13,796 bases of DNA from a virus (IMGVR_UViG_2619619125_000002); one strand, 5' to 3'. Shown: positions 1-12,265, numbered from the stretch's first letter. The notes: generated by a model from the letters alone, not told the origin. A program made the numbers and translations.

Positions 1-576
1 CTACGGCAGTGCTGGCCATTCAATATCCTGTGCAGTTGACGTATCAACACGGTTCAGCAATACCCGATACTTTTTCCATGCTTCCAGCAACGAGATTTCT
101 TCCTCCGTTGCAATTTCCAGATCTGCAGCATCCTGAAGCGGCGCAATATGCTCACTGGCTACCTGCATCAGGCTGTTTTTTGTTTCTTCCGCCTCCCGGA
201 TCCGGAACAGTTTTTCTGCTTCCGTATCCTTCACCCAGGCTGTGCCGTTCCACTTCTGATATTCCCCTCCCGGCGATAACCAGGTAACATTTTCCGGTAA
301 CGGACCGAGTTCAGAAATAAATAACGCGTCGCCGGAAGCCACGTCATAGACGGTTTTTCCCCGATGATCTTCAACGAGATGCCACGATGCCTCATCACTG
401 TTGAAAACAGCCACGAAGCCTGCCGGAATATCTGGCGGTGCAATATCGGTACTGTTTGCTGGCAGACCTGTATGAGGCGGAATATATGCGTCACCTTCAC
501 CAATAAATTCATTAGTTCCGGCCAGCAGATTATAAATTTTTATGGTCCGTGGTTGTTCACTCATTCTGAATGCCAT
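1..576 (-). CDS. Tail fiber assembly protein (Tfa family), 191 aa
   Basis: ORF translation [28 protein letters not shown]... matches the Tfa proteins of E. coli prophages (TfaR/TfaQ/TfaE) as remembered; ATG at 574-576, stop TAG at 3-1 exactly at the window edge. Confidence 0.85.
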
Positions 577-1139
577 TATGCAAGCCTCACAATATAGTTA
601 AATGCGATGTTTTTGACGGTGTTTTCCGCATTACCAGCAGCGTTATCCGGTTTACCGCCCGACGGCTCATAAACAGGCGTATCAATTTTCGTCGTATACG
701 GCTCCTCCTCATTTCCTGTACCGGGCAAAACATCCGTCAACAGTTCATCAATTTCTGTCGGGATGAAGCCTGTCAGGGAGACATCAAAATCAGCATTGAT
801 TAGGTCCGACAGCTCCATCCGCAACAGATCTTCATCCCAGCCAGCATTCATCGGCAGGCGATTATCTGCCAGGCGGTACGCCTTTTTCTGCTCATCCGTC
901 AGGCCAGACAGAACAATGACCGGAACAGAATCCATTTTGAGCATTTCAGCCGCCATAACACGACCGTGACCCGCAATAATTTCGCCCTTTTCGTCAATCA
1001 GCACCGGATTAGTCCAGCCGAATTGCTTAATACTTTCTACCAGTTGTGCCACCTGCTCAGGGCTGTGCGTCCTGGCGTTGTGCGCATACGGTGACAATTC
1101 TTGTAATGGGCGATAGACTATCTTTAATTTCTCGCTCAT
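576..1139 (-). CDS. ParB-like nuclease domain protein (YnaK-like), 187 aa; C-terminal tail may derive from a side tail fiber gene
   Basis: N-terminal region ([50 protein letters not shown]) has a ParB/sulfiredoxin-like motif; ATG at 1137-1139; stop overlaps the tfa start as TAATG. Confidence 0.7.
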
Positions 1140-1166
1140 ACAGCCTTGCTTTATGAATAAAACGCA

Positions 1167-1190
1167 CCCCAGCAGCCAGTGCTACTGGGG
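1167..1190 (-). terminator. Possible hairpin downstream of trkG (ccccag...ctgggg stem)
   Basis: 6-bp GC-rich inverted repeat followed on the - strand by a U-rich stretch (gcguuuuauuc); sits between the trkG stop and the ParB-like gene start. Confidence 0.3.
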
Positions 1191-1276
1191 ACGGAGGGGT
1201 TGCTGGTAAAGTTAGGTATTGGATCAATGAGTGAGTCAACATAATATTAAACTCACAATTATAAATCAGCCATATA

Positions 1277-2734
1277 TTAGGAGCGCCAAAAAAAACCTGA
1301 AAACAATATAATAACAGGATAAATTTCAAGGCGACCAAGAATCATAGCTATGCACATTAAACATTTTGCAATGTCATTAAGCACTCCGAATGACGATGCA
1401 GTAGCCCCAAAACCTAATCCCATATTATTAATACATGCAGCCACTGTTGCAAATGATGTAAGAAAATCATATCCCATACCATTTAACACCAGTATAAAAA
1501 ACACCGTGAAGAGAGTATAAAGAAAAAAGAAACTCCATACAGACCTCATTACACGATCTGTAACTATCTTCCCTCCTACATTTACACTCAACAACGCTCT
1601 GGGATGAGAAAGCTGATTTATCTCGTGTTTGCTTTGTTTGAAAAGTATAAGAAATCGAAGTGACTTAATTCCACCACAAGTTGAACCTATACATCCCCCA
1701 AAGAAACTTGACAACAGCAAAAACACTATCGTGTGCGTGGGCCAACTTGCATAATCCTGCGTAGCTAAACCATTATCAGTGAGCATGGAGCTGGCAAGAA
1801 AAAACGAATGAATAAAACTTCCATGCAAGTCATACATACCTATATGCCAGACCTGGAAAGAGGTAACAATGATCACCCCTAAGGCTATTAACAGAAAGAA
1901 ACGAAGTTCAATATCTCTGATTAAAGGTTTTATCGTTTTCCTGCTAATAACAATATACCAAAGAGTGAAGTTGAAAGCCGATAGCAGGGAAAAAGAACCA
2001 GCCACCAGCTCAACCAAATAGTTATTAAAATATCCGATACTCTCGCTATGAGTTGAGAAACCACCAAGCGAAACTGTGGAAATCCCGTGACAAATAGCAT
2101 CAAACAAAGGCATTCCTGCAAGTCTATAACAGACAATACAAGCAATACCTAATAAAGAATAAGTTATCCACAGTGTCCGTGACGTATCGGCCAGGCGGGG
2201 AGTGAGTTTGTCATCCTTAAATGGCCCCGGCATTTCTGACTGATAAAGCTTTGCACCACCAATACCCAATAATGGCAATACAGCAACCGCCAGAACAATA
2301 ACTCCTAAACCACCTATAAAATTTAACTGTGACCGATAGTACAAATATGCCCGAGGTAATGAACTAACATCATCAATTACAGTTGCTCCTGTTGTTGTTA
2401 TTCCAGAAACCCCTTCAAACAGAGCATCAATGAACGTTAAATTAAGTTCTGAGTCAATCCATAAAGGGAATGCACTAATAACAGAAAACAAAATCCAAAA
2501 CATTACAATTATAATAAACCCATCACGGGTACGTAATTGAATGCCAGATTTCTTAGTTGTATACCACGCTCCGCCACCAATGCAAAAAAATATAACGAAA
2601 GTTATAAAGAAAACGAACAGGCTTTTTTCTTTATAAAACAATGCTACAACCATTGGTGGCAACATTGAAAGACTATAGAGCCAAACCAGGAACCCACACA
2701 TATGAGTAACAACTCTTACATGAGATGTATTCAT
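1277..2734 (-). CDS. trkG: Trk-system potassium uptake protein TrkG, 485 aa
   Basis: Translation from MNTSHVRVVTHMCGFLVWLY... matches remembered TrkG over its length; multi-pass membrane protein; ATG at 2732-2734. An upstream TTG at 2750-2752 with an AAGGTGG Shine-Dalgarno is an alternative start. Confidence 0.9.
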   Translation of the reverse strand: MNTSHVRVVTHMCGFLVWLYSLSMLPPMVVALFYKEKSLFVFFITFVIFFCIGGGAWYTTKKSGIQLRTRDGFIIIVMFWILFSVISAFPLWIDSELNLTFIDALFEGVSGITTTGATVIDDVSSLPRAYLYYRSQLNFIGGLGVIVLAVAVLPLLGIGGAKLYQSEMPGPFKDDKLTPRLADTSRTLWITYSLLGIACIVCYRLAGMPLFDAICHGISTVSLGGFSTHSESIGYFNNYLVELVAGSFSLLSAFNFTLWYIVISRKTIKPLIRDIELRFFLLIALGVIIVTSFQVWHIGMYDLHGSFIHSFFLASSMLTDNGLATQDYASWPTHTIVFLLLSSFFGGCIGSTCGGIKSLRFLILFKQSKHEINQLSHPRALLSVNVGGKIVTDRVMRSVWSFFFLYTLFTVFFILVLNGMGYDFLTSFATVAACINNMGLGFGATASSFGVLNDIAKCLMCIAMILGRLEIYPVIILFSGFFWRS

Positions 2735-2871
2735 ATCTAAATATTCTTTCAATTATAACCACCTTGCTGCAATATTATGATTATACTGTATAAAATTTAA
2801 CTCCTCTTAGATCTTACTTCACTGTTCCTTATGAAACAATCATCAAAATGAATCATATTGTAGTTAAGATT

Positions 2872-3336
2872 TTACTTTAAACACTGCTCGGTTATGTATT
2901 GCTGAGCACCTTCAAGTTGGGCCTGCATCATTACCAGTCGTTCCCGGAGGGTGAAATAATCCCGTTCAGCGGTGTCTGCCAGTCGGGGGGAGGCTGCATT
3001 ATCCACGCCGGAGGCGGTGGTGGCTTCACGCACTGACTGACAGACTGCTTTGATGTGCAACCGACGACGACCAGCGGCAACATCATCACGCAGAACATCA
3101 TTTTCAGCTTTCGCATCAGCTAACTCCTTCGTGTATTTTGCATCGAGCGCAGCAACATCACGCTGACGCATCTGCATGTCAGTAATTGCCGCGTTCGCCA
3201 GCTTCAGTTCTCTGGCATTTTTGTCGCGCTGTTCTTTGTAGGCGATGGCGTTATCACGGTAATGATTAACACCCCATGACAGGCAGACGACGATGCAGAT
3301 AACCAGAGCGGAGATAATCGCGGTTACTCTGTTCAT
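2872..3336 (-). CDS. Rz i-spanin (inner-membrane spanin subunit)
   Basis: Translation [21 protein letters not shown]... with N-terminal TM and coiled-coil-like body; start ATG overlaps the R stop (ATGA); contains the embedded Rz1 frame, as in lambda/P21 Rz. Confidence 0.85.
2931..3116 (-). CDS. Rz1 o-spanin lipoprotein, embedded in the +1 frame of Rz
   Basis: Translation [24 protein letters not shown]... has a lipobox (VVGC) and a PPPPP proline-rich body typical of Rz1; lies wholly inside Rz. Confidence 0.8.
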
Positions 3337-3830
3337 TGCTGACCCCACAAACAGATTTCACGCTCAATCTCACGACGAGTCATGAGACCTTTCCATTGCT
3401 TACCGCCAGCATATGTCCAGCGACGTAGCTGATCACATGCGCCTTTGATATCGCCCTGGTTTATTTTGCGAAGAAGCGTCGATGTTCTGAAATTGCCAGC
3501 ACCCACGTTGTAAACGAATGAGTAAAGAGCGCCGCGCGTTGTTTCCGGTATATCGACTTTGATGTACGGGTTAATTTGTCTGGCGACCGTGGCAAGGTCT
3601 TTATTCAAGAGTGTTTTGCATTCTGCTTTGGTATACGTTTTACCGAGCATGATGTCTTTTCCTGTATGCCCGTGACATACAGTCCATACACCAACAATAT
3701 CTTTGTATGGTATGTAGCTGACACCTTCCAGACCATCGTTACCACTTGGGCCAGTGATTAACACTGATGCTATAGCAATTGCTCCGCCACCAATAGCAGC
3801 AGCAACGACTTTTCGTAATGATGGAGGCAT
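3333..3830 (-). CDS. Phage lysozyme R, SAR-type endolysin (P21 R / RrrD-like), 165 aa
   Basis: Translation [27 protein letters not shown]... has a Gly/Ala-rich N-terminal signal-anchor-release segment and a lysozyme body matching the DLP12 RrrD / phage 21 R as remembered; start overlaps the S stop (ATGA). Confidence 0.9.
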
Positions 3831-4045
3831 TATTCACCTCTCGCAGCCTTGCGCTTATCTTCTTTAATCTTGAAATAAAGGTTTGTCAGGTACGTCAGCA
3901 GGCCAAATACCAGACTACCCAGCACACCGATTGCAGCCCACTGTGACGGAGTTACTCTATCGAGCAACTGTAAAAACCAGTAGCCAGCACTGCCTGCGGA
4001 GGTGCCGTAGGCAATGCCTGTTGAAATTTTGTCCATGGATTTCAT
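3830..4045 (-). CDS. Holin S, phage-21-type pinholin, 71 aa, with dual-start motif MKSM
   Basis: Translation [71 protein letters not shown]; ATG at 4043-4045 and a second ATG at 4034-4036 (Met1/Met4); strong SD GGAGGTG upstream. Confidence 0.85.
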
Positions 4046-4145
4046 AGCCTCACCTCCGCACGGAACGGATGGCATAGTTATTATGTGTAGGCTTTCAGAC
4101 ACATCAATCAGAGCCTTAATTGATATATATGCTGGAGACGATGCA

Positions 4146-4171
4146 ATATAAAAAGCTCGCCGTAGCGAGCT
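4146..4171 (-). terminator. Rho-independent terminator-like hairpin downstream of the second lipoprotein gene
   Basis: Perfect 7-bp stem agctcgc/gcgagct with a 4-nt loop, followed on the - strand by UUUUAUAU. Confidence 0.4.
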
Positions 4172-4296
4172 AATAAAATGTATTTCTCTGATATTATGTT
4201 TATTTGTATTAGCTCAGACTTGACATCACAGGTTTCGTATATAGAACATCATCAAATCTGTCAGTTTGCTATGAATGAGATATAGTAATTGAAGAG

Positions 4297-4692
4297 CTAA
4301 CCTCGCATGTCAAAGCCAGATTTCTGAAAATCTCTGTAGACTTCCGGATTGTTGAAGGCCGGAAATTTGGCTTTATGAGCTGCGGACTTTATCGCTTCGC
4401 AATAGGCTTTATCACCGTTACTGGTAGATATTTTTAACGCCGTGCCATCCTGAGAGAATTCCATATGCAACCTGCATTTTTTCCCTTTCCAGTTATGCGG
4501 CTCATCAAGTTTGGCATTAATTGCAGCTCTGATTCCCCGCGCTTGCGCCCCCCATTCATCCTGATCATCCCAGCGTCCTGAACTGCAACTACCTGTAGCA
4601 GTAGTTTTGTGGCAATCTGAAGGGTGTAAAGGTGTGCATCCCGCAACAAAACCGACCCAAAAAGTCAACATAACGATTTTCTTTAATCCCAC
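4297..4692 (-). CDS. Lipoprotein with divergent TolA C-terminal (domain III)-like fold, 131 aa, probable GTG start
   Basis: N-terminus MGLKKIVMLTFWVGFVAGC is a lipoprotein signal peptide (lipobox VAGC); GTG start at 4690-4692 preceded by AGGAG with an 8-nt spacer; C-terminal region (KKCRLHMEF...YCEAIKSAA...NPEVYRDFQ) parallels the paralog at 4843-5271. Confidence 0.65.
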   Translation of the reverse strand: MGLKKIVMLTFWVGFVAGCTPLHPSDCHKTTATGSCSSGRWDDQDEWGAQARGIRAAINAKLDEPHNWKGKKCRLHMEFSQDGTALKISTSNGDKAYCEAIKSAAHKAKFPAFNNPEVYRDFQKSGFDMRG

Positions 4693-4842
4693 TTCTTGCT
4701 CCTCAATCCATTAAAATCTCAGCAATAGTAGTTGTTACGTCCGCCACTGGCTCAGAGCTGACTATCCGCTAAATTTAGCTCAGTGCCGTAGCTGTGTCAG
4801 AACAAACCTAAGCCGAAACCGTTTATTACAAAACAATAAATA

Positions 4843-5271
4843 TCAGGGTTTAAAATCCAGCACCCCATTTTGAAATACTTTATATACTTCCGGCGAAGGG
4901 GGGGCAGGTATATCAGCATTCTTTATCGCATTCATCGCTTCACGACATAAATCGAGGTCTCCACTTTCTCTTTTAACCTCCAGTAGAAGGCCATTCGGGG
5001 CCATATGCATTCTCAGTGTACACTCTTTTCCTGAATACTTACTCGCATCCCCGAACTGTTTTTCGATGGCGCTCTTGATTTGATGGGCATACAGACGGAT
5101 ATCCTCACTAACATCAGAAGTACGTTCAGATGAACTCACATACTGTGTCTCTATTGCTTTATCGGAGTAATATGATGTACGGTCATGATAATTTGTCGAT
5201 ACAGCATCAGTGCACCCGATAATAATCCCACTAATAATCAACGTAAGAATTGATGCGCTACGAAAACCCAT
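4843..5271 (-). CDS. Lipoprotein with TolA C-terminal domain (TolA-III) homology, 142 aa
   Basis: Signal peptide with lipobox (IIGC); C-terminal 85 aa (YAHQIKSAIEKQFGDASKYSGKECTLRMHMAPNGLLLEVKRESGDLDLCREAMNAIKNADIPAPPSPEVYKVFQNGVLDFKP) aligns with the C-terminus of E. coli TolA as I remember it (YAGQIKSAIESKFYDASSYAGKTCTLRIKLAPDGMLLDIKPEGGDPALCQAALAAAKLAKIPKPPSQAVYEVFKNAPLDFKP); ATG at 5269-5271 with a GAGGA SD. Confidence 0.8.
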   Translation of the reverse strand: MGFRSASILTLIISGIIIGCTDAVSTNYHDRTSYYSDKAIETQYVSSSERTSDVSEDIRLYAHQIKSAIEKQFGDASKYSGKECTLRMHMAPNGLLLEVKRESGDLDLCREAMNAIKNADIPAPPSPEVYKVFQNGVLDFKP

Positions 5272-5300
5272 TTTTCCTCACATATGTCATATAGTAAAGG

Positions 5301-5330
5301 ATTATATATACCGTTGTTTTGGACGCTCAA
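5301..5330 (-). promoter_or_regulatory. Candidate sigma70 promoter for the TolA-domain lipoprotein gene (-35 TTGAGC, 18-bp spacer, -10 TATAAT)
   Basis: On the - strand, TATAAT (complement of 5301-5306) and TTGAGC (complement of 5325-5330) about 30 nt upstream of the ATG at 5271. Confidence 0.35.
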
Positions 5331-5860
5331 ACAGCGAATCAGATCAAATAAAACGCACATTTGTTAACATTTACACAAAGTCTGCGTGGGATATTCTGAA
5401 AGAATATCCATAATGTGGAGAGAATCTATTGAAGTGCATGGTGCCGGGTGCCTTCCGGTGAACAAAATGTTCGTGATACCTGTCGGCGACAGAAAAGGTT
5501 AATGGTATCACCCCACCGCACAGGGGGATTCACCATGCAGGAGTTTTCTTAGCAAACTCACTGCGCGCCCGGCAACTCCCAACCACATAAAATGCGGAGT
5601 TTGTGGTATTTATGCATATAACTCGCAGGAATTATCTTAAAAAACTGATGTCGATCCGGATTAAAAAGAAGCAGGTCATCATCAGATGACTGGAAAAAAG
5701 GAAAAAAAAAATACTCATCATACAGTTTTGATTGCAGGGATGAGCCTGCTATGCACAATATGCAGAATATAAGCAAGATAAAAATATGCAGGCATATTAT
5801 TTCGGATTTTGTTATTAACACAACCTTTTTAATAATCATTTGGCATACAATAAACCAGTC

Positions 5861-5887
5861 CAAAAAGAACCGCCTAAACAGGCGGTT
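5861..5887 (-). terminator. Terminator-like hairpin in the late leader region (aaccgcc / ggcggtt stem followed by a U-run on the - strand)
   Basis: 7-bp perfect stem with a 6-nt loop; - strand reads ...ggcggtt cuuuuugg. Confidence 0.35.
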
Positions 5888-6141
5888 GGTCAATACAAAG
5901 GATGCTTCGTCTTTATTATAGTAATCTGAGGCGTCGGGTGTCTTGTATCAGACAACATATTGTCCCGCTAAACAGCGAATTACAAACCACCCTGCAATGA
6001 TCTCTCATCTCATTTTATATGAGTTGACGACATCAGGATAACGCATCATCAGCCCCTGCCAAGAAATATCAAAACTCCCGCCAGCAATGTGTTATCACAA
6101 TATTGTAAAAAAAACACAGCACCGAAACTATAACTGGTCTC

Positions 6142-6150
6142 TGTTATAAT
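6142..6150 (+). promoter_or_regulatory. Extended -10 element TGtTATAAT on the + strand, flanked by a 9-bp inverted repeat (6132-6140 / 6162-6170)
   Basis: tgttataat at 6142-6150; aactggtct and agaccagtt flank it symmetrically; no good -35. Could drive a short + strand RNA ending at the 6205-6237 terminator, or be an operator or late-promoter-associated element. Confidence 0.25.
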
Positions 6151-6204
6151 TTGGAGCAGAAAGACCAGTTGCCCAACTAGCAGCATTCTCCCCTGCTTTC
6201 CTGA

Positions 6205-6237
6205 CGTAAAAAAACCGCATTAAGCGGTTTTTTTACG
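6205..6237. terminator. Bidirectional rho-independent terminator (14-bp perfect inverted repeat cgtaaaaaaaccgc / gcggtttttttacg), candidate tR' downstream of Q
   Basis: Perfect 14-bp palindromic arms with a 5-nt loop (attaa); GC core flanked by A7/T7 runs so it reads as hairpin plus U-run in both orientations; lies about 80-110 nt downstream of the Q stop. Confidence 0.6.
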
Positions 6238-6314
6238 ATGTCCATGTCTGCAATCCGCCTCGCGATACAGCTGTGCGAAGCATAGCAAAATTGAAGCAGT
6301 TTATACGTAAGAAA

Positions 6315-6857
6315 TCAAGCCATTTTCTCAGCAAATGATTCACGCATGGGAATATATAGGGCATACTCAGCAACAGCTAACCAATTAGCAATCCGTTTTT
6401 CGCATGTGCTAAAACACCACTCTGGGTGTCCATCATTTAGCAATTCAGCCATTTTGCGCTTAGTCATCCCCCGCCCTTCATAGCGTTGCCGGAGAATGCA
6501 AATCAATCCTGGATGCTCTGCCAGCACCTCACTTATGACTCGATCAATACATAACGCCTCTGCATCAGTACAATGCGCCAGCCAGCTCTTTTGCTTGCCG
6601 TTGATCATCTCTCGCAAAAACGCTTCCAGCTCAGCTTTCTCTATTCCCGCTTTTTTCATTCTACGCAGGGCTTCATTAATGGCTGTTTTCGTCAGTTTTT
6701 TGGATGCCAACAACTGATTGAACATATTCCCTGACCTGCCACCGCCAATATACGACCAGCGCCCCCACATACGTAGTTTTCCCTGAATCCAGACACTTTC
6801 CAGCGTGGTGAGGCGAAGGTGTTCTCCGCTTTTTCCTGTATTCGTTGGGTAAATCAT
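6315..6857 (-). CDS. Putative late-gene antitermination protein Q, 180 aa
   Basis: Sits immediately upstream of the late leader/terminator and the S-R-Rz cassette; contains an RMWGRW motif resembling the ERWGAW motif I recall in the DLP12 Q-like protein QuuD; Cys-containing C-terminal half; start overlaps the YbcO-like stop (ATGA). Confidence 0.6.
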   Translation of the reverse strand: MIYPTNTGKSGEHLRLTTLESVWIQGKLRMWGRWSYIGGGRSGNMFNQLLASKKLTKTAINEALRRMKKAGIEKAELEAFLREMINGKQKSWLAHCTDAEALCIDRVISEVLAEHPGLICILRQRYEGRGMTKRKMAELLNDGHPEWCFSTCEKRIANWLAVAEYALYIPMRESFAEKMA

Positions 6858-7144
6858 AAATGACCTTTCTTTCTCCAGATTTCTTGTGTGCGAAAAACCC
6901 CTTCAGCATGCATCAGGCGCAATTCTTCTTTGGTGTAATCGCTGGTTTTTACCCGCCCGTCGATTAGATCGTGGCATGAGCTACAGGCTATCGCCGCCTG
7001 CATATCGTGTGGTTTTGTCGCTGTTCCGCACGTCCCCGCCAGCCTGTAATGCGCCAGCACAGAGGTTTCGGGATTGTGATTGCAGTAGCCAGGGATTCTG
7101 ATCTGGCACATCTGGCCTTTAGCCGCTTTACGTAAATTCACCAT
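6854..7144 (-). CDS. YbcO-like (DUF1364) putative zinc-binding nuclease, 96 aa
   Basis: Size, Cys/His pattern (CxxxxxC ... CxxC ... CSSCHDLIDGR) and position just upstream of Q match the DLP12 ybcO / nin-region genes as remembered. Confidence 0.7.
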   Translation of the reverse strand: MVNLRKAAKGQMCQIRIPGYCNHNPETSVLAHYRLAGTCGTATKPHDMQAAIACSSCHDLIDGRVKTSDYTKEELRLMHAEGVFRTQEIWRKKGHL

Positions 7145-7743
7145 TACGCAAACTCCAGTAGTTGTGCGGCCACATTTTCAACTTCCTCCTGAGAGGAGAA
7201 TTTACGAAACAGAATCCAGTTCCACAGCACATTCAGTACAGATTTATAAACCTGCTGAAACTCGACTTCGTCCATATTCGCAAAAGCGATGGATTTTGCC
7301 CGACGCCCACGGCTACCGTCCGGATAAATATGCTCGGTGTAAAATCCGGCCTGAATGGTTACCCACTCGCGGAAAGCCTCAAACGACTTTAGCAACGCCG
7401 TATCCCGGGTTCTACGAGTCGCAACGGTGTTAAGGTATTGCTCTGCGGCATCACTCAGGGCTGGCGTGTGTTCCCGACCAACTGATTCGCACAGGTAATC
7501 AACGAAACCAGACAGCAGTTCTCGTTCGCGAGGCGTGATCGCCCCACCGACCGGAGTCCAGTAATCGAATCCCAGTTGCAGGAGTTTGAAAAAACGCTTG
7601 TGGAATGCGTAGTTACGCACACGCTTAAAGTCTGCGTGTATCCACTCACCTATTTTGATTTGATGCAGAAAATCGCAACTCTCCGGCGTCGCCGGGAGAA
7701 GTAAACCAGAAGAAGTTTGTTTGACCAGTTGTATATGCGCCAT
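7144..7743 (-). CDS. DUF1367-family phage protein (nin-region), 199 aa
   Basis: ATG at 7741-7743; stop overlaps the ybcO-like start (TAATG); position upstream of ybcO/Q typical of lambdoid nin-region genes; family assignment from memory. Confidence 0.6.
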   Translation of the reverse strand: MAHIQLVKQTSSGLLLPATPESCDFLHQIKIGEWIHADFKRVRNYAFHKRFFKLLQLGFDYWTPVGGAITPRERELLSGFVDYLCESVGREHTPALSDAAEQYLNTVATRRTRDTALLKSFEAFREWVTIQAGFYTEHIYPDGSRGRRAKSIAFANMDEVEFQQVYKSVLNVLWNWILFRKFSSQEEVENVAAQLLEFA

Positions 7744-7801
7744 TTCTCAATCTCTCGATGGCGCAGCGCAGCAGATGCCAGTTGTTCAGGCTGACGAATA
7801 A

Positions 7802-7829
7802 AGTATAAATAAACTGGCTATGGTGTAAA
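7802..7829 (-). promoter_or_regulatory. Candidate sigma70 promoter for the DUF1367-ybcO-Q operon (-35 TTTACA, 16-bp spacer, -10 TATACT)
   Basis: On the - strand about 60 nt upstream of the DUF1367 ATG, at the boundary with the AT-rich island. Confidence 0.3.
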
Positions 7830-8023
7830 GCCCCACATAGCATGAACAAACACTACATATCAAATAGCTGGTACAAGGATAGAAATACGACATTTATTAT
7901 TAAAAACGATTAGATAAATTACATTTTAATGTTATGCAAAAGTTCTTTTTTATCATAACATTTCAATAAAAGCATTACAGATGCAATCATCCCGTCATCA
8001 TCAATTATTTAAGGTGGTTAAAC

Positions 8024-8110
8024 ATGGAAAATAACAAGTTCGCACATCTCGCTCCTTTTTTATCCGTAATCCTTTTCGCTTGTTGTTTTATATGGGCATT
8101 ATTTTTATAA
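8024..8110 (+). CDS. Small hydrophobic ORF, 28 aa (MENNKFAHLAPFLSVILFACCFIWALFL), candidate small membrane protein
   Basis: ATG at 8024 preceded by the strong SD AAGGTGG with a 6-nt spacer; single predicted TM helix; lies in AT-rich DNA with no other ORF. Confidence 0.3.
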   Translation: MENNKFAHLAPFLSVILFACCFIWALFL

Positions 8111-8204
8111 AGTAGCCACATGATAAGTTGCTGGAATCATATTTCCCACTCAAGTCATTAACATTTGATAAGATATATCTAAAAGGACGCCTTTACATTA
8201 TTTA

Positions 8205-8231
8205 TGTGTATATAATTTATTTATATACACA
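8205..8231. repeat. Perfect 10-bp inverted repeat tgtgtatata (7-nt spacer) tatatacaca, candidate protein-binding site
   Basis: Read directly from the sequence; the left arm/spacer junction contains TATAAT (8211-8216). Confidence 0.3.
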
Positions 8232-8556
8232 GTAAAGGTATCCTGGGAAAATATTTATCGTTAAAAAATACATCATAAATAATTAAGCTGAAATTTCAGA
8301 ACACAACTAATACACACAATAAGGTTCAGTAACAATAATCTATGTGGACTACATCGAGATTTTTTGATTAAACTTTAATAACTTATTCCTAACACACAGA
8401 ATGCATAAACTAAAAGTAAAACAAATAGTTATACGAAAAACAACCATATTTATTATATCTTCTCCTCTAATCAACATATCAATTATGTGTTTCATAACAG
8501 CTTGACATAACCCTCAAAAACACGCATTTATAATGCATGTTTTTGATGAGGTGGTT

Positions 8557-8895
8557 ATGACACACAAGAGAATTCCTAAAGATTGGGTAATCAAACGCTC
8601 AACTCCGTTCTTCACAAAAGAGAACGTACCTTCAGCGTTATTAACACATCATAATACAGCAGCAGGTGTTTTTGGGCAGTTGTGCGTAATGGAAGGCACT
8701 GTAACATATTATGGTTTTACTGATGAGAATGCTACTGAACCGGAGATAAAAGTAGTCATTAATGCTGGCGCTTTTGCAACAAGCCCACCACAATACTGGC
8801 ACCGTGTTGAACTAAGCGATGATGCTCAGTTTAATATTAACTTTTGGGTCGCTCCAGACTTCTCGGGCGAAAAAGTCTATAGCACCAAAAAATAG
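8557..8895 (+). CDS. DUF1971-family protein (YeaR / TehB-N-terminal-domain-like), 112 aa
   Basis: Translation MTHKRIPKDWVIKRSTPFFTKE...VMEGTVTYYGFTDENATEPE...AGAFATSPPQYWH...FNINFWVAPD parallels E. coli YeaR as remembered (RSTPFW...VMHGAVKYLGYADEHSAEPD...AGQFAVFPPEKWH...FNIDFFVAPE); SD GAGGTGG before the ATG at 8557; own terminator downstream. Confidence 0.7.
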   Translation: MTHKRIPKDWVIKRSTPFFTKENVPSALLTHHNTAAGVFGQLCVMEGTVTYYGFTDENATEPEIKVVINAGAFATSPPQYWHRVELSDDAQFNINFWVAPDFSGEKVYSTKK

Positions 8896-8924
8896 ATGAT
8901 CATATTAAAAATGCTTTAACAGTC

Positions 8925-8961
8925 AGACCCGGCAGGGCTATCCCCGACGGGTCTCATTTTT
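8925..8961 (+). terminator. Rho-independent terminator downstream of the DUF1971 gene
   Basis: Long interrupted hairpin (agacccggcaggg ... ccccgacgggtct) followed by cattttt. Confidence 0.6.
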
Positions 8962-9618
8962 GTAAATATATTGGTTCTACATTGACAGGAGACTTCAACC
9001 ATAAGAAGTAATCTGAATACTTGAGCAATAAATTTACTTAAGATTAATGAGCGCACCTTGCCGGACAAAGATAAACCAAGGTAACACCTTTTTTCTAGCC
9101 AGTATGTAATCAATCAGAAAGCCGCTCCATAAGAACAACAGCAAGACAATAAATTGCCATTACAGCCGCAATAGCTAGCGCACATTTGAGAACCAGCACG
9201 ACAACCTCCTGTATTGGACGTACACCAGTTCTGATAAATATGAGGCTGTCTCATCATTGATTCAATATAACTATTGGGTATAGTTTCTGTGATTTTGTTC
9301 TGTAGAAATGGAACACAACAACCAGTCACCACCAGCACTTCTTTAAATACGCCAAGTCCGACGCAAGCTAACCTTCTAGTCCGCTTTGAGCGAGGAGCGG
9401 ACCAAACCCGGCCAACTGACTCTTAAAGGGGCCGCAGGAATTTTTCGTCTGAACTTTCGAAGCTCCTCTCCCTGAAGACAGAAAACTTCTGTGTGCTGTG
9501 GGAATATTGAATCTTTGCCTTAGATATAAATAATTTTATCCCGCCTGAAGTTTACATTATTTTATTTATCTGTTTTTCTAAATCAGACTGCACTCCTTAC
9601 TTAAATCAGGAGCCAGTC

Positions 9619-11010
9619 ATGCCATTTGTTATTTATGTGTTTACTATCAGTGCCTTTGCGCTCGGACTCGCGGAATTTGTCCCCATTGGGCTGACAGACG
9701 TTATGGCTCAGGGGTTGTGTGTGGGTGTGGAGCAGACCGGGGCAGCGGTTACAACCTATGCACTGGGGGCAACGTTCGCGGCACCCGTACTGTCTGCGCT
9801 GACAGCAAGCTGGAGCCGGAAAAATGTAATGCTTACAACTGCCGTTGTGTTTACTGCCGGTAGTCTGGCGGCCGCGTTTGCAGCCACATTACCTCAGCTC
9901 CTGTTAGCGCGGTTCATTGCTGGTCTGGGACACGGCCTGTTTCTGGCTGCGGCATCCAGTACCGCAGCTCGTCTTGCTGGACCGGGTAACTGCCCTGACT
10001 GTGGTGCGGTGATGGGCGACGCAACATACCAGGAAACATTCGATGAAGAGAGTCAGGTTGAAGCTAAGGAAAATGATCCGGAGGAAATGGAAGGCGCTGA
10101 ACATCCGCACAATGAGAATGCTGGCAGCGATCCGCATCGCGATTGCAGTGATGAAACTGGCGAAGTCGCAGATCCCGTAATCGTAGAAGACATAGAGCCA
10201 GGTATTTATTACGGAATTTCGAATGAGAATTACCACGCGGGTCCCGGTATCAGTAAGTCTCAGCTCGATGACATTGCTGATACTCCGGCACTATATTTGT
10301 GGCGTAAAAATGCCCCCGTGGACACCACAAAGACAAAAACGCTCGATTTAGGAACTGCTTTCCACTGCCGGGTACTTGAACCGGAAGAATTCAGTAACCG
10401 CTTTATCGTAGCACCTGAATTTAACCGCCGTACAAACGCCGGAAAAGAAGAAGAGAAAGCGTTTCTGATGGAATGCGCAAGCACAGGAAAAACGGTTATC
10501 ACTGCGGAAGAAGGCCGGAAAATTGAACTCATGTATCAAAGCGTTATGGCTTTGCCGCTGGGGCAATGGCTTGTTGAAAGCGCCGGACACGCTGAATCAT
10601 CAATTTACTGGGAAGATCCTGAAACAGGAATTTTGTGTCGGTGCCGTCCGGACAAAATTATCCCTGAATTTCACTGGATCATGGACGTGAAAACTACGGC
10701 GGATATTCAACGATTCAAAACCGCTTATTACGACTACCGCTATCACGTTCAGGATGCGTTCTACAGTGACGGTTATGAAGCACAGTTTGGAGTGCAGCCA
10801 ACTTTCGTTTTTCTGGTTGCCAGCACAACTATTGAATGCGGACGTTATCCGGTTGAAATTTTCATGATGGGCGAAGAAGCAAAACTGGCAGGTCAACAGG
10901 AATATCACCGCAATCTGCGAACCCTGTCTGACTGCCTGAATACCGATGAATGGCCAGCTATTAAGACATTATCACTGCCCCGCTGGGCTAAGGAATATGC
11001 AAATGACTAA
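9619..11010 (+). CDS. recE: Truncated exonuclease VIII (RecE C-terminal catalytic domain) fused in-frame to a foreign N-terminal segment of about 120 aa resembling the first TM helices of an MFS transporter
   Basis: C-terminal ~300 aa (...[17 protein letters not shown]... ending [11 protein letters not shown]) is the RecE nuclease domain with a PD-(D/E)xK-like D-x-K motif and overlaps the recT start by 8 nt; N-terminal 1 to ~120 ([25 protein letters not shown]...[18 protein letters not shown]) is hydrophobic and MFS-like; real ATG with AGGAG SD at 9608-9612. Confidence 0.8.
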
Positions 11011-11812
11011 GCAACCACCAATCGCAAAAGCCGATCTGCAAAAAACTCAGGGAAACCGTGCACCAGCAGCAGTTAAAAATAGCGACGTGATTAGTTTTAT
11101 TAACCAGCCATCAATGAAAGAGCAACTGGCAGCAGCTCTTCCACGCCATATGACGGCTGAACGTATGATCCGTATCGCCACCACAGAAATTCGTAAAGTT
11201 CCGGCGTTAGGAAACTGTGACACTATGAGTTTTGTCAGTGCGATCGTACAGTGTTCACAGCTCGGACTTGAGCCAGGTAGCGCCCTCGGTCATGCATATT
11301 TACTGCCTTTTGGTAATAAAAACGAAAAGAGCGGTAAAAAGAACGTTCAGCTAATCATTGGCTATCGCGGCATGATTGATCTGGCTCGCCGTTCTGGTCA
11401 AATCGCCAGCCTGTCAGCCCGTGTTGTCCGTGAAGGTGACGAGTTTAGCTTCGAATTTGGCCTTGATGAAAAGTTAATACACCGCCCGGGAGAAAACGAA
11501 GATGCCCCGGTTACCCACGTCTATGCTGTCGCAAGACTGAAAGACGGAGGTACTCAGTTTGAAGTTATGACGCGCAAACAGATTGAGCTGGTGCGCAGCC
11601 TGAGTAAAGCTGGTAATAACGGGCCGTGGGTAACTCACTGGGAAGAAATGGCAAAGAAAACGGCTATTCGTCGCCTGTTCAAATATCTGCCCGTATCAAT
11701 TGAGATCCAGCGTGCAGTATCAATGGATGAAAAGGAACCACTGACAATCGATCCTGCAGATTCCTCTGTATTAACCGGGGAATACAGTGTAATCGATAAT
11801 TCAGAGGAATAA
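11003..11812 (+). CDS. recT: Recombinase RecT (single-strand annealing protein), 269 aa
   Basis: Translation from [35 protein letters not shown]... matches remembered RecT end-to-end; ATG at 11003 overlaps the recE 3' end. Confidence 0.95.
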
Positions 11813-11820
11813 TTCAGCCT

Positions 11821-11839
11821 GGCGGTGTAATGCACCGCC
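11821..11839. other. Hairpin ggcggtg(taatg)caccgcc between recT and ralR
   Basis: 7-bp perfect stem; no immediate U-run on either strand; possibly an RNA structural or processing element. Confidence 0.25.
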
Positions 11840-11868
11840 AACTTGAAATATTTTTTATGAGAAAAATT

Positions 11869-12063
11869 ATGAGATATGACAATGTTAAACCATGTCCATT
11901 TTGTGGTTGTCCATCAGTAACGGTGAAAGCCATTTCAGGATATTACCGAGCGAAGTGTAACGGATGCGAATCCCGAACCGGTTATGGTGGAAGTGAAAAA
12001 GAAGCACTCGAAAGATGGAATAAACGAACCACTGGAAATAATAATGGAGGTGTTCATGTATAA
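11869..12063 (+). CDS. ralR: RalR, Rac prophage restriction-alleviation protein / type I toxin (DNase), 64 aa
   Basis: Translation MRYDNVKPCPFCGCPSVTVKAISGYYRAKCNGCESRTGYGGSEKEALERWNKRTTGNNNGGVHV matches remembered RalR; stop overlaps the ydaC start. Confidence 0.9.
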   Translation: MRYDNVKPCPFCGCPSVTVKAISGYYRAKCNGCESRTGYGGSEKEALERWNKRTTGNNNGGVHV

Positions 12064-12265
12064 AATTACCGCCACTATTGAAAAGGAAGGTGGCACTCCT
12101 ACTAACTGGACAAGATATTCAAAATCTAAACTAACGAAATCAGAATGCGAAAAAATGCTCTCAGGTAAAAAAGAAGCAGGCGTTTCCAGAGAGCAGAAAG
12201 TAAAACTGATAAATTTTAATTGCGAGAAACTTCAGTCCTCGAGAATTGCATTGTATTCAAATTAA
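12056..12265 (+). CDS. ydaC: YdaC, Rac prophage small protein, 69 aa
   Basis: Translation MYKITATIEKEGGTPTNWTRYSKSKLTKSECEKMLSGKKEAGVSREQKVKLINFNCEKLQSSRIALYSN; SD GGAGG upstream of the ATG at 12056. Confidence 0.85.
   Translation: MYKITATIEKEGGTPTNWTRYSKSKLTKSECEKMLSGKKEAGVSREQKVKLINFNCEKLQSSRIALYSN

Follow-up and report, generated by a model that had tools for sequence, protein, structure and literature searches.

Repressor-less prophages with an intact lysis cassette have been described before. The closest system to the one studied here is the DLP12 prophage of Escherichia coli K-12 (quuD–nmpC–essD–rrrD–rzpD/rzoD), which carries Q, S, R and Rz genes, the Q-type gene intact and the cassette of the phage 21 type, and has no repressor (PMC7918800). 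For the DLP12 lysis genes, published work describes control by a Q-like factor, RpoE and Hha, and effects on biofilms and outer-membrane vesicles (PMC7918800 and refs 27–29 therein), so domestication for lysis or vesicle release has already been proposed for a sister locus. Rac-like phages of full length, such as Rac-SA53 (KU052037), are also known (PMC5917428), and in the Gifsy prophages of Salmonella the nin-like gene irsA follows a LexA-regulated dinI–antirepressor pair (PMC3121763). Here we analyse a stretch of viral DNA of 13,796 nucleotides (nt; IMGVR_UViG_2619619125_000002), referred to throughout as the window, whose minus strand holds a complete late module: a Q-like antiterminator gene preceded by two nin-like genes, and the lysis genes S, R, Rz and Rz1. 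An earlier reading of the sequence (the original prediction) had regarded the control of this potentially lethal module as unexplained. The module is probably silent because a deletion removed the early promoter that drives Q, and not through repression.

Between 2947 and 4060 the window is about 96–97% identical to DLP12 DNA, and R differs from its DLP12 counterpart by three residues. The two loci differ in prophage and attachment site (here Rac, at ttcA) and in the interval between Q and S, which here contains TolA-like morons and an STnc100 RNA; homology stops just upstream of S. RpoE control has been reported for DLP12, whereas no RpoE-type promoter was found here. The quuD product is presumably shorter than the 180-residue DUF1133 protein of the window and from a different Q family. 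Phage 21 has the same lysis protein families, with S in the P21 holin family, and the same cassette logic, but its Q is only remotely similar to the one here (E = 3e-5, profile search only), the Q-binding element (QBE) and pause element of the window are not recognisable by similarity, and the element is a defective chromosomal remnant. K-12 Rac has the same integration site and the same int–xis–rcbA–ralR–recT–recE arm (99.9% identical); it kept racR–ydaS–ydaT and lost ydaW′…Q–S–R–′Rz, the opposite of the form in the window. Rac-SA53, 683R6 and 666R9 share the DUF1367–YbcO–Q operon, trkG and the ParB-like gene, although Rac-SA53 has another holin and endolysin and toxin morons. The irsA (DUF1367) homologue of Gifsy-1 and Gifsy-2 has an equivalent nin-like location (the phage homologue is named after Gifsy-2 STM1020), but dinI, the antirepressor and a LexA box are all missing here. 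What is specific to this locus is one particular deletion derivative of Rac; the cassette type itself is already known.

All 13,796 bases are identical to the chromosome of E. coli strain SW071614. The ttcA gene is the Rac integration site, and in this identical genome intR adjoins ttcA, with pinR/ydfK/ynaM flanking the opposite end. The hallmarks of Rac, the intR–xisR…recT–recE arm and trkG, are present. The RacR–YdaS–YdaT immunity switch is missing from both the window and the whole remnant but is present in K-12 and in the long Rac prophage of strain DSM 103246 (record L004), which identifies the element as a deletion derivative of Rac. The DSM 103246 prophage keeps racC–kilR–sieB–racR–ydaS–ydaT–ydaU, full-length recE, and head and tail genes (two with internal stops), and is 100% identical to the window over 644–4087 and 99.93% identical over 4076–9989. 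Window positions 4076–9989 correspond to L004 19768–25682 and positions 9977–12052 to L004 38607–40682, leaving a 12.9-kb gap that runs from the interior of a major facilitator superfamily (MFS) gene to the interior of recE. A second deletion, with its junction near 644, runs from ynaK to the end of the tail-fibre gene. By these alignments the window form is derived from a DSM 103246-type long form through two deletions, and we count this history among the firm results. The view that no structural genes are left is nearly true, except that tfaR and a tail-fibre fragment persist.

We consider it likely that the window represents a Rac-type lambdoid prophage at ttcA that was truncated recently and has a standard late module. 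In the full-length Rac-type phages vB_EcoS-683R6, vB_EcoS-666R9 and Rac-SA53, which have the immunity switch, replication genes, DUF1367–YbcO–Q, morons, lysis genes, trkG, the ParB-like gene and terminase, the order is racR | ydaS–ydaT–ydaU–…–DUF1367–YbcO–Q–(morons)–S–R–Rz–trkG. In these phages DUF1367–YbcO–Q forms the distal end of the rightward early operon, RacR acts at the racR/ydaS switch, and the intact phage would produce Q only when the operon fires from that switch. The 12.9-kb deletion took away the switch and everything between it and DUF1367, leaving the Q operon without a known strong promoter, the sole candidate being a promoter-like site at 7829–7802. Downstream, the predicted layout is that of a Q21-related antiterminator, a constitutive late promoter with a pause and Q-loading site, an intrinsic terminator and then the lysis cassette. 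Late transcripts would end at the terminator that follows Q, so that lysis gene expression would stay off without any repressor: transcripts that start after Q meet, if Q is lacking, a strong terminator (6234–6208) and two further terminator-like sites (5887–5868 and 4171–4154) before they reach S. A repressor is required only where its target promoter exists, and with the promoter deleted none would be needed. The absence of a CI- or RacR-type repressor from the window, as originally stated, is borne out by the lack of any helix-turn-helix, cI, Cro or RacR family in its open reading frames (ORFs), and a search for a repressor gene next to the window found none annotated across the whole 15.6-kb remnant of the identical genome. 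With the early-right promoter of Q deleted and three terminators or terminator-like sites between Q and S, control of the module no longer lacks an explanation.

The region around Q fits this layout. The Pfam profile PF06530 scores Q at 26.4 bits against a cutoff of 26, which is marginal. A profile built from 19 DUF1133 members gave the Q21 structures 6P18 and 6JNX as its only significant matches in the Protein Data Bank (PDB), at the E-value given above, over the N-terminal W-x-x-G-x-L-x-x-W-G-x-W motif and residues 95–178 (the C-terminal 84 residues); on the evidence of profile searches only, Q is a remote homologue of Q21. Directly after the Q stop codon lies a 62-nt non-coding block that is near-invariant across 33 unique downstream sequences of IMG/VR relatives, and the sequence beyond it diverges. 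The block carries TTGATT-17-TTCAAT, a −10-like TAYGCT and the repeated GCTTCAAT/GCTTCGCA, which are candidates for the −35, −10, pause element and QBE. In the relatives, a GC-rich hairpin followed by a T-run always occurs at the same distance after Q, with at least five different stem sequences and two pairs that show compensatory change. By analogy, the order of Q, block and terminator is the arrangement described for Q cassettes, in which the Q gene is followed by PR′, a sigma-dependent pause element, a terminator and the late genes (bioRxiv 10.1101/651190). Annotators can regard DUF1133 proteins as late regulators related to Q21, recognisable by the conserved site and the terminator that follow their genes.

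The late module is intact. All nine genes at 2872–7743 on the minus strand have a start, a stop, no internal stop codon and a Shine–Dalgarno-like sequence, in agreement with the claim that the late regulatory and lysis genes are full-length. The overlaps listed at the outset can be read directly in the sequence: TAATG at 7144 joins DUF1367 to YbcO, and ATGA joins YbcO to Q (6857–6854), S to R (3833–3830) and R to Rz (3336–3333), the last given the ATG annotated in RefSeq, which we used in place of the GTG at 3348 from which a mechanical ORF list begins Rz. S has an M-K-S-M dual start and two hydrophobic segments in its translation, and PF04971 covers 63 of 64 profile positions. R is identical to K-12 RrrD (4ZPU) at 162 of 165 residues and matches over its full length the lysozyme chain of PDB entry 3HDE (E = 3e-110), which we take to be phage 21 R; it has a Gly/Ala-rich N-terminal signal-anchor-release (SAR) segment at residues 8–27 and the catalytic triad E35–D44–T50. 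Rz1 (3116–2931) lies wholly within Rz (3336–2872) and has a VVGC lipobox and a proline-rich mature part. S, R and the spanins thus have the features of a phage-21-type pinholin and SAR endolysin with a two-component embedded spanin. At the DNA level the lysis genes are 99.2–99.8% identical to those of released phages, and judged from sequence the cassette should be lytically competent.

Intact genes do not by themselves argue for maintenance. Ten genes (DUF1367, YbcO, Q, both TolA-like genes, S, R, Rz, Rz1 and trkG) show zero substitutions relative to the DSM 103246 long form, so their intactness requires no selection and in all likelihood reflects very recent truncation. Of 5426 complete E. 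coli genomes, 447 contain the module (at least 80% coverage), and the exact architecture of the window occurs in only two, one of which has an IS3-family insertion sequence (IS) inside DUF1367. Among further copies that are nearly identical, Q is interrupted by IS3 in one case, R by two IS elements and the S leader by IS2 at 4076–4087, as seen in a non-random sample of about a dozen loci in which IS-bearing copies came first. In K-12 Rac the segment from ydaW to the 5′ part of Rz is lost and racR is kept. Comparisons among remnant variants gave 0–13 substitutions each, too few for an informative ratio of nonsynonymous to synonymous rates (dN/dS). In S, R and Rz of strain XJ34, two synonymous changes against five nonsynonymous ones show no synonymous bias; in the deeper comparison with phage 683R6, DUF1367 has 25 synonymous and 4 nonsynonymous changes, the mark of ordinary purifying selection.

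These data bear on the proposal that the host has domesticated Q–S–R–Rz/Rz1 for stress lysis, release of vesicles or toxin, peptidoglycan remodelling or biofilm formation, which we consider unlikely. A domesticated cassette would use a conserved promoter upstream of DUF1367 or a host sigma factor, as has been argued for DLP12. The DLP12 essD–rrrD–rzpD loci are about 96–97% identical to the cassette of the window, and DLP12 S–R–Rz/Rz1 reportedly affects how vesicles are produced and is responsive to a Q-like factor, to RpoE and to Hha (PMC7918800); moreover, at least four independent immunity-region deletions spare the module, and the promoter-like site at 7829–7802 is invariant. However, near-identical copies are disrupted by IS elements at four different sites, K-12 has lost the module, the module is 100% identical to the long prophage and needs no selection, and the changes in XJ34 lack the expected bias. 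No RpoE-type promoter was matched, and homology to DLP12 ends 15–27 nt upstream of S, meaning that the DLP12 promoter region is not shared. Neither a host-controlled promoter, for example for RpoE, nor conservation beyond neutral expectation, as would mark a domesticated cassette, was found, and nothing here favours this part of the original prediction.

Natural variants show that the loss of immunity is a recurrent event. In strains XJ34, ST12468 and OW1E2 the immunity region was lost through three different deletions, which cut recE to 1911, 810 and 1026 nt, respectively, and in two of the three the junction is marked by IS1 or IS421; each strain retains full-length DUF1367, YbcO, Q, S, R, Rz and Rz1. 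With at least three other independent losses of the immunity region next to an intact module, the repressor-less state has been tolerated repeatedly. Rac has lost its immunity region several times independently and decays by opposite routes: in K-12 the switch survives and the lysis genes are gone, and in this lineage it is the other way round. The window is a clean example of how a prophage without its repressor can safely retain an entire lysis cassette: transcription of lambdoid late genes depends on a cascade whose first promoter left together with the repressor. Current understanding is unchanged by this finding.

A second alternative, which we likewise rate as improbable, is that the promoter-like site at 7829–7802 is functional and Q is kept off actively, by H-NS bound to the spacer at 7830–8532, by Rho-dependent termination, or by both. 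Rho and H-NS silence prophage genes in E. coli, an AT-rich spacer of about 700 bp (28% GC, between the divergent DUF1367 and DUF1971 genes) lies directly upstream, and the promoter-like site is conserved. Against this, the same spacer and promoter-like site occur in phages that must express Q to grow, and the region has no more promoter-like matches than expected by chance (17 against 14.5 ± 3.2 in shuffled sequences). In ST12468 an IS1 element inserted 158 nt upstream of DUF1367 replaces all but about 150 nt of the spacer while Q, S, R and Rz stay intact; silencing by H-NS through the adjacent AT-rich DNA, as had been suggested, therefore cannot be essential. The AT-rich composition of this DNA was described correctly, but it is not an island foreign to the phage: the spacer and the DUF1971 gene are found at the same place in vB_EcoS-666R9 (88% identity), which makes them phage cargo. 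The candidate sigma-70 promoter originally proposed at 7802–7829 stands as a 10/12 consensus match; such matches occur at chance frequency, yet this one is conserved.

Several observations weigh against our explanation. The site at 7829–7802 is invariant in the window, XJ34, ST12468, OW1E2 and phages 666R9 and 683R6, so it may be a real but weak or conditional promoter; it could be a genuine autonomous Q promoter, and H-NS, Rho or a low level of Q would then be needed for silencing. In 666R9 a divergently oriented moron lies between the early genes and DUF1367, so for phages of this group it is itself an assumption that early transcription reads through. A consensus promoter scan made no call at the PR′ position. 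An AlphaFold2 model of Q from a 19-sequence alignment reached a predicted local distance difference test (pLDDT) score of 52, too poor to test the fold, and the assignment of Q to its family rests on profile–sequence evidence; a literature search found no experimental demonstration of antitermination by a DUF1133-family Q. A repressor or a matching Q could also come from another prophage of that genome. Most of the doubt that is left attaches to the DUF1133 Q subfamily and to the conserved promoter-like site ahead of DUF1367. We nevertheless take the site to be silent, presumably, in the remnant.

A further reading strikes us as quite improbable: the invariant promoter-like site and the 18-mer in the DUF1367 leader would form an autonomous, host-regulated region, and repressor-less Rac remnants would carry a working Q-triggered autolysis or vesicle module that is repeatedly kept with trkG and recT while the toxic immunity/kil region is shed. 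Control in trans, by a repressor or a same-specificity Q of another prophage in the genome, is very improbable: prophages of enterobacteria often have DUF1133 Q genes (905 clusters, at least 585 viral contigs), and parts of the region have additional matches elsewhere in the identical genome, but neither promoter candidate has a recognisable operator-like sequence nearby, and the Q of another phage would cross-activate only in a cell that is already lysing.

Table 1 Features of the window, in order of position
Feature	Position	Strand	Evidence or remarks
tfaR (tail-fibre assembly)	1–576		
ParB-like fragment (ynaK)	576–1139	−	187-aa ORF
trkG	1277–2752		
Rz i-spanin	2872–3336	−	PF03245, E = 4e-53
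Rz1 o-spanin lipoprotein	2931–3116	−	PF06085, E = 2e-19; inside Rz in another frame
R SAR endolysin, RrrD/R21 type	3333–3830	−	PF00959
S pinholin, phage 21 type	3830–4045	−	PF04971, E = 4.5e-35; dual start S71/S68
Terminator-like hairpin just upstream of S, end of moron unit	4154–4171	−	dG −13, z −4.2
TolA-C-terminal-domain lipoprotein-like moron gene 2	4297–4692	−	PF06519, E = 1e-14; lipobox VAGC; PHROG 5772
TolA-C-terminal-domain lipoprotein-like moron gene 1	4843–5271	−	PF06519, E = 2e-23; lipobox IIGC
STnc100-family prophage small RNA	5382–5568	−	Rfam RF02076, 82 bits (gathering score 47), E = 1e-16
Second terminator-like hairpin and T-run	5868–5887	−	dG −12.5, z −2.1; weak
Intrinsic terminator, tR′-like	6208–6234	−	Hairpin and U-run about 85–105 nt past the Q stop; dG −19.7 kcal/mol, z −5.6
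Conserved non-coding block, 62 nt, directly after the Q stop	6253–6314	−	Presumed PR′, Q-binding and pause elements
Q-like DUF1133 putative late antiterminator, 180 aa	6315–6857	−	PF06576, E = 7e-107; PHROG 753 ‘Q-like’
YbcO/DUF1364 putative nuclease	6854–7144	−	PF07102, E = 5e-45
DUF1367/irsA homologue (NinB/Orf-like), first gene of the nin-like operon	7144–7743	−	PF07105, E = 6e-98; PHROG 319
Invariant 18-mer CAGCCTGAACAACTGGCA in the DUF1367 5′ leader	7776–7793	−	Identical in 4/4 Rac-type sequences
Sigma-70-like promoter candidate TTTACA-16-TATACT	7802–7829	−	About 60 nt upstream of DUF1367; 10/12 consensus match
DUF1971 gene	8533–8895	+	
MFS′–′recE fusion ORF	9619–11010	+	
Deletion junction MFS′–′recE	9977–9989	+	Imperfect 13-bp homology; lost: racR–ydaS, replication genes, most cargo
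recT, ralR, rcbA, xisR, intR			Beyond the fusion ORF

The leader of DUF1367 and the spacer upstream of it have further features. The 18-mer CAGCCTGAACAACTGGCA is unchanged even in Rac-SA53, where the surrounding DNA is only about 83% identical, and may have a regulatory role. Its AACTGGC can pair with GCCAGTT (7812–7818), so that the −10-like hexamer lies between the two arms. At the position aligned with the −10 of the 7829–7802 site, Rac-SA53 reads TATAAT. The spacer contains a perfect 11-bp inverted repeat (8205–8215 and 8221–8231), and a 15-nt inverted repeat (8514–8528 and 8532–8546) overlaps the DUF1971 start. Three known modes of control were looked for and rejected for the Q operon. 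Control by RacR was set aside as no 12-mer is shared with the racR–ydaS intergenic regions; shared 9–11-mers are at about chance level, with none within 500 nt of 7829–7802, and the whole window holds no RacR-operator-like TAGGC-N-GCCTA palindrome. For LexA control as in the Gifsy prophages, no box was found within three mismatches of the consensus, and the only CTGT-N8-ACAG-like match in 7744–8540 is a one-mismatch site at 8485–8500, beside DUF1971. A search for an RpoE promoter as in DLP12 gave no match.

In the interval between Q and S, the STnc100 RNA precedes the TolA-like genes and has the same strand as the late transcript, and a 2026 preprint relates STnc100 to the PasD small RNAs. The TolA-like genes are paralogues that encode lipobox proteins made essentially of the TolA C-terminal domain, in a moron unit bounded by a promoter-like site (5330–5301) and the terminator-like hairpin at 4171–4154. 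They are 99% identical to genes of phage mEp460 and have 87% homologues on pO157-type plasmids. A literature search for the function of these morons gave no result; as a guess, the proteins might act as decoys for TolA-binding colicins or the g3p of filamentous phages. The stretch of about 700 bp between the tR′-like terminator and STnc100 (5560–6250) has no homologue in 50,697 phage records, and its sole ORF (5558–5893, TTG start) matches no protein family. It also contains a promoter-like site (5944–5915) and the weak hairpin and T-run at 5887–5868. Phage 683R6 and Stx phages have tRNA genes in the Q–S interval; a search for such genes here found none.

At the left end of the window, the 187-residue ParB-like ORF is a chimera over the second deletion junction near 644, joining the 5′ part of ynaK to a tail-fibre remnant, and tfaR contains an Rfam match to IS009 (35–233, minus strand). 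On the other arm, Rfam places the RalA antitoxin RNA opposite ralR (12062–12240, minus strand). The long Rac of DSM 103246 carries an 8-kb island of non-phage cargo between the replication genes and DUF1367 (L004 24250–31562), with genes for DUF1971, an MFS transporter, a gamma-glutamylcyclotransferase, a LysR regulator, DUF2254 and a transporter of the betaine/choline/carnitine (BCCT) family; of these the window retains only DUF1971 and the 5′ end of the MFS gene. In MFS′–′recE, both halves of which are labelled as pseudogenes in RefSeq, the first ~122 MFS codons are in frame with RecE residues ~527–866, the PD-(D/E)XK nuclease part, and intact recT follows. This fusion and the recE truncations of the other strains (1911, 1026 and 810 nt left) resemble the laboratory sbcA fusions that activate RecET.

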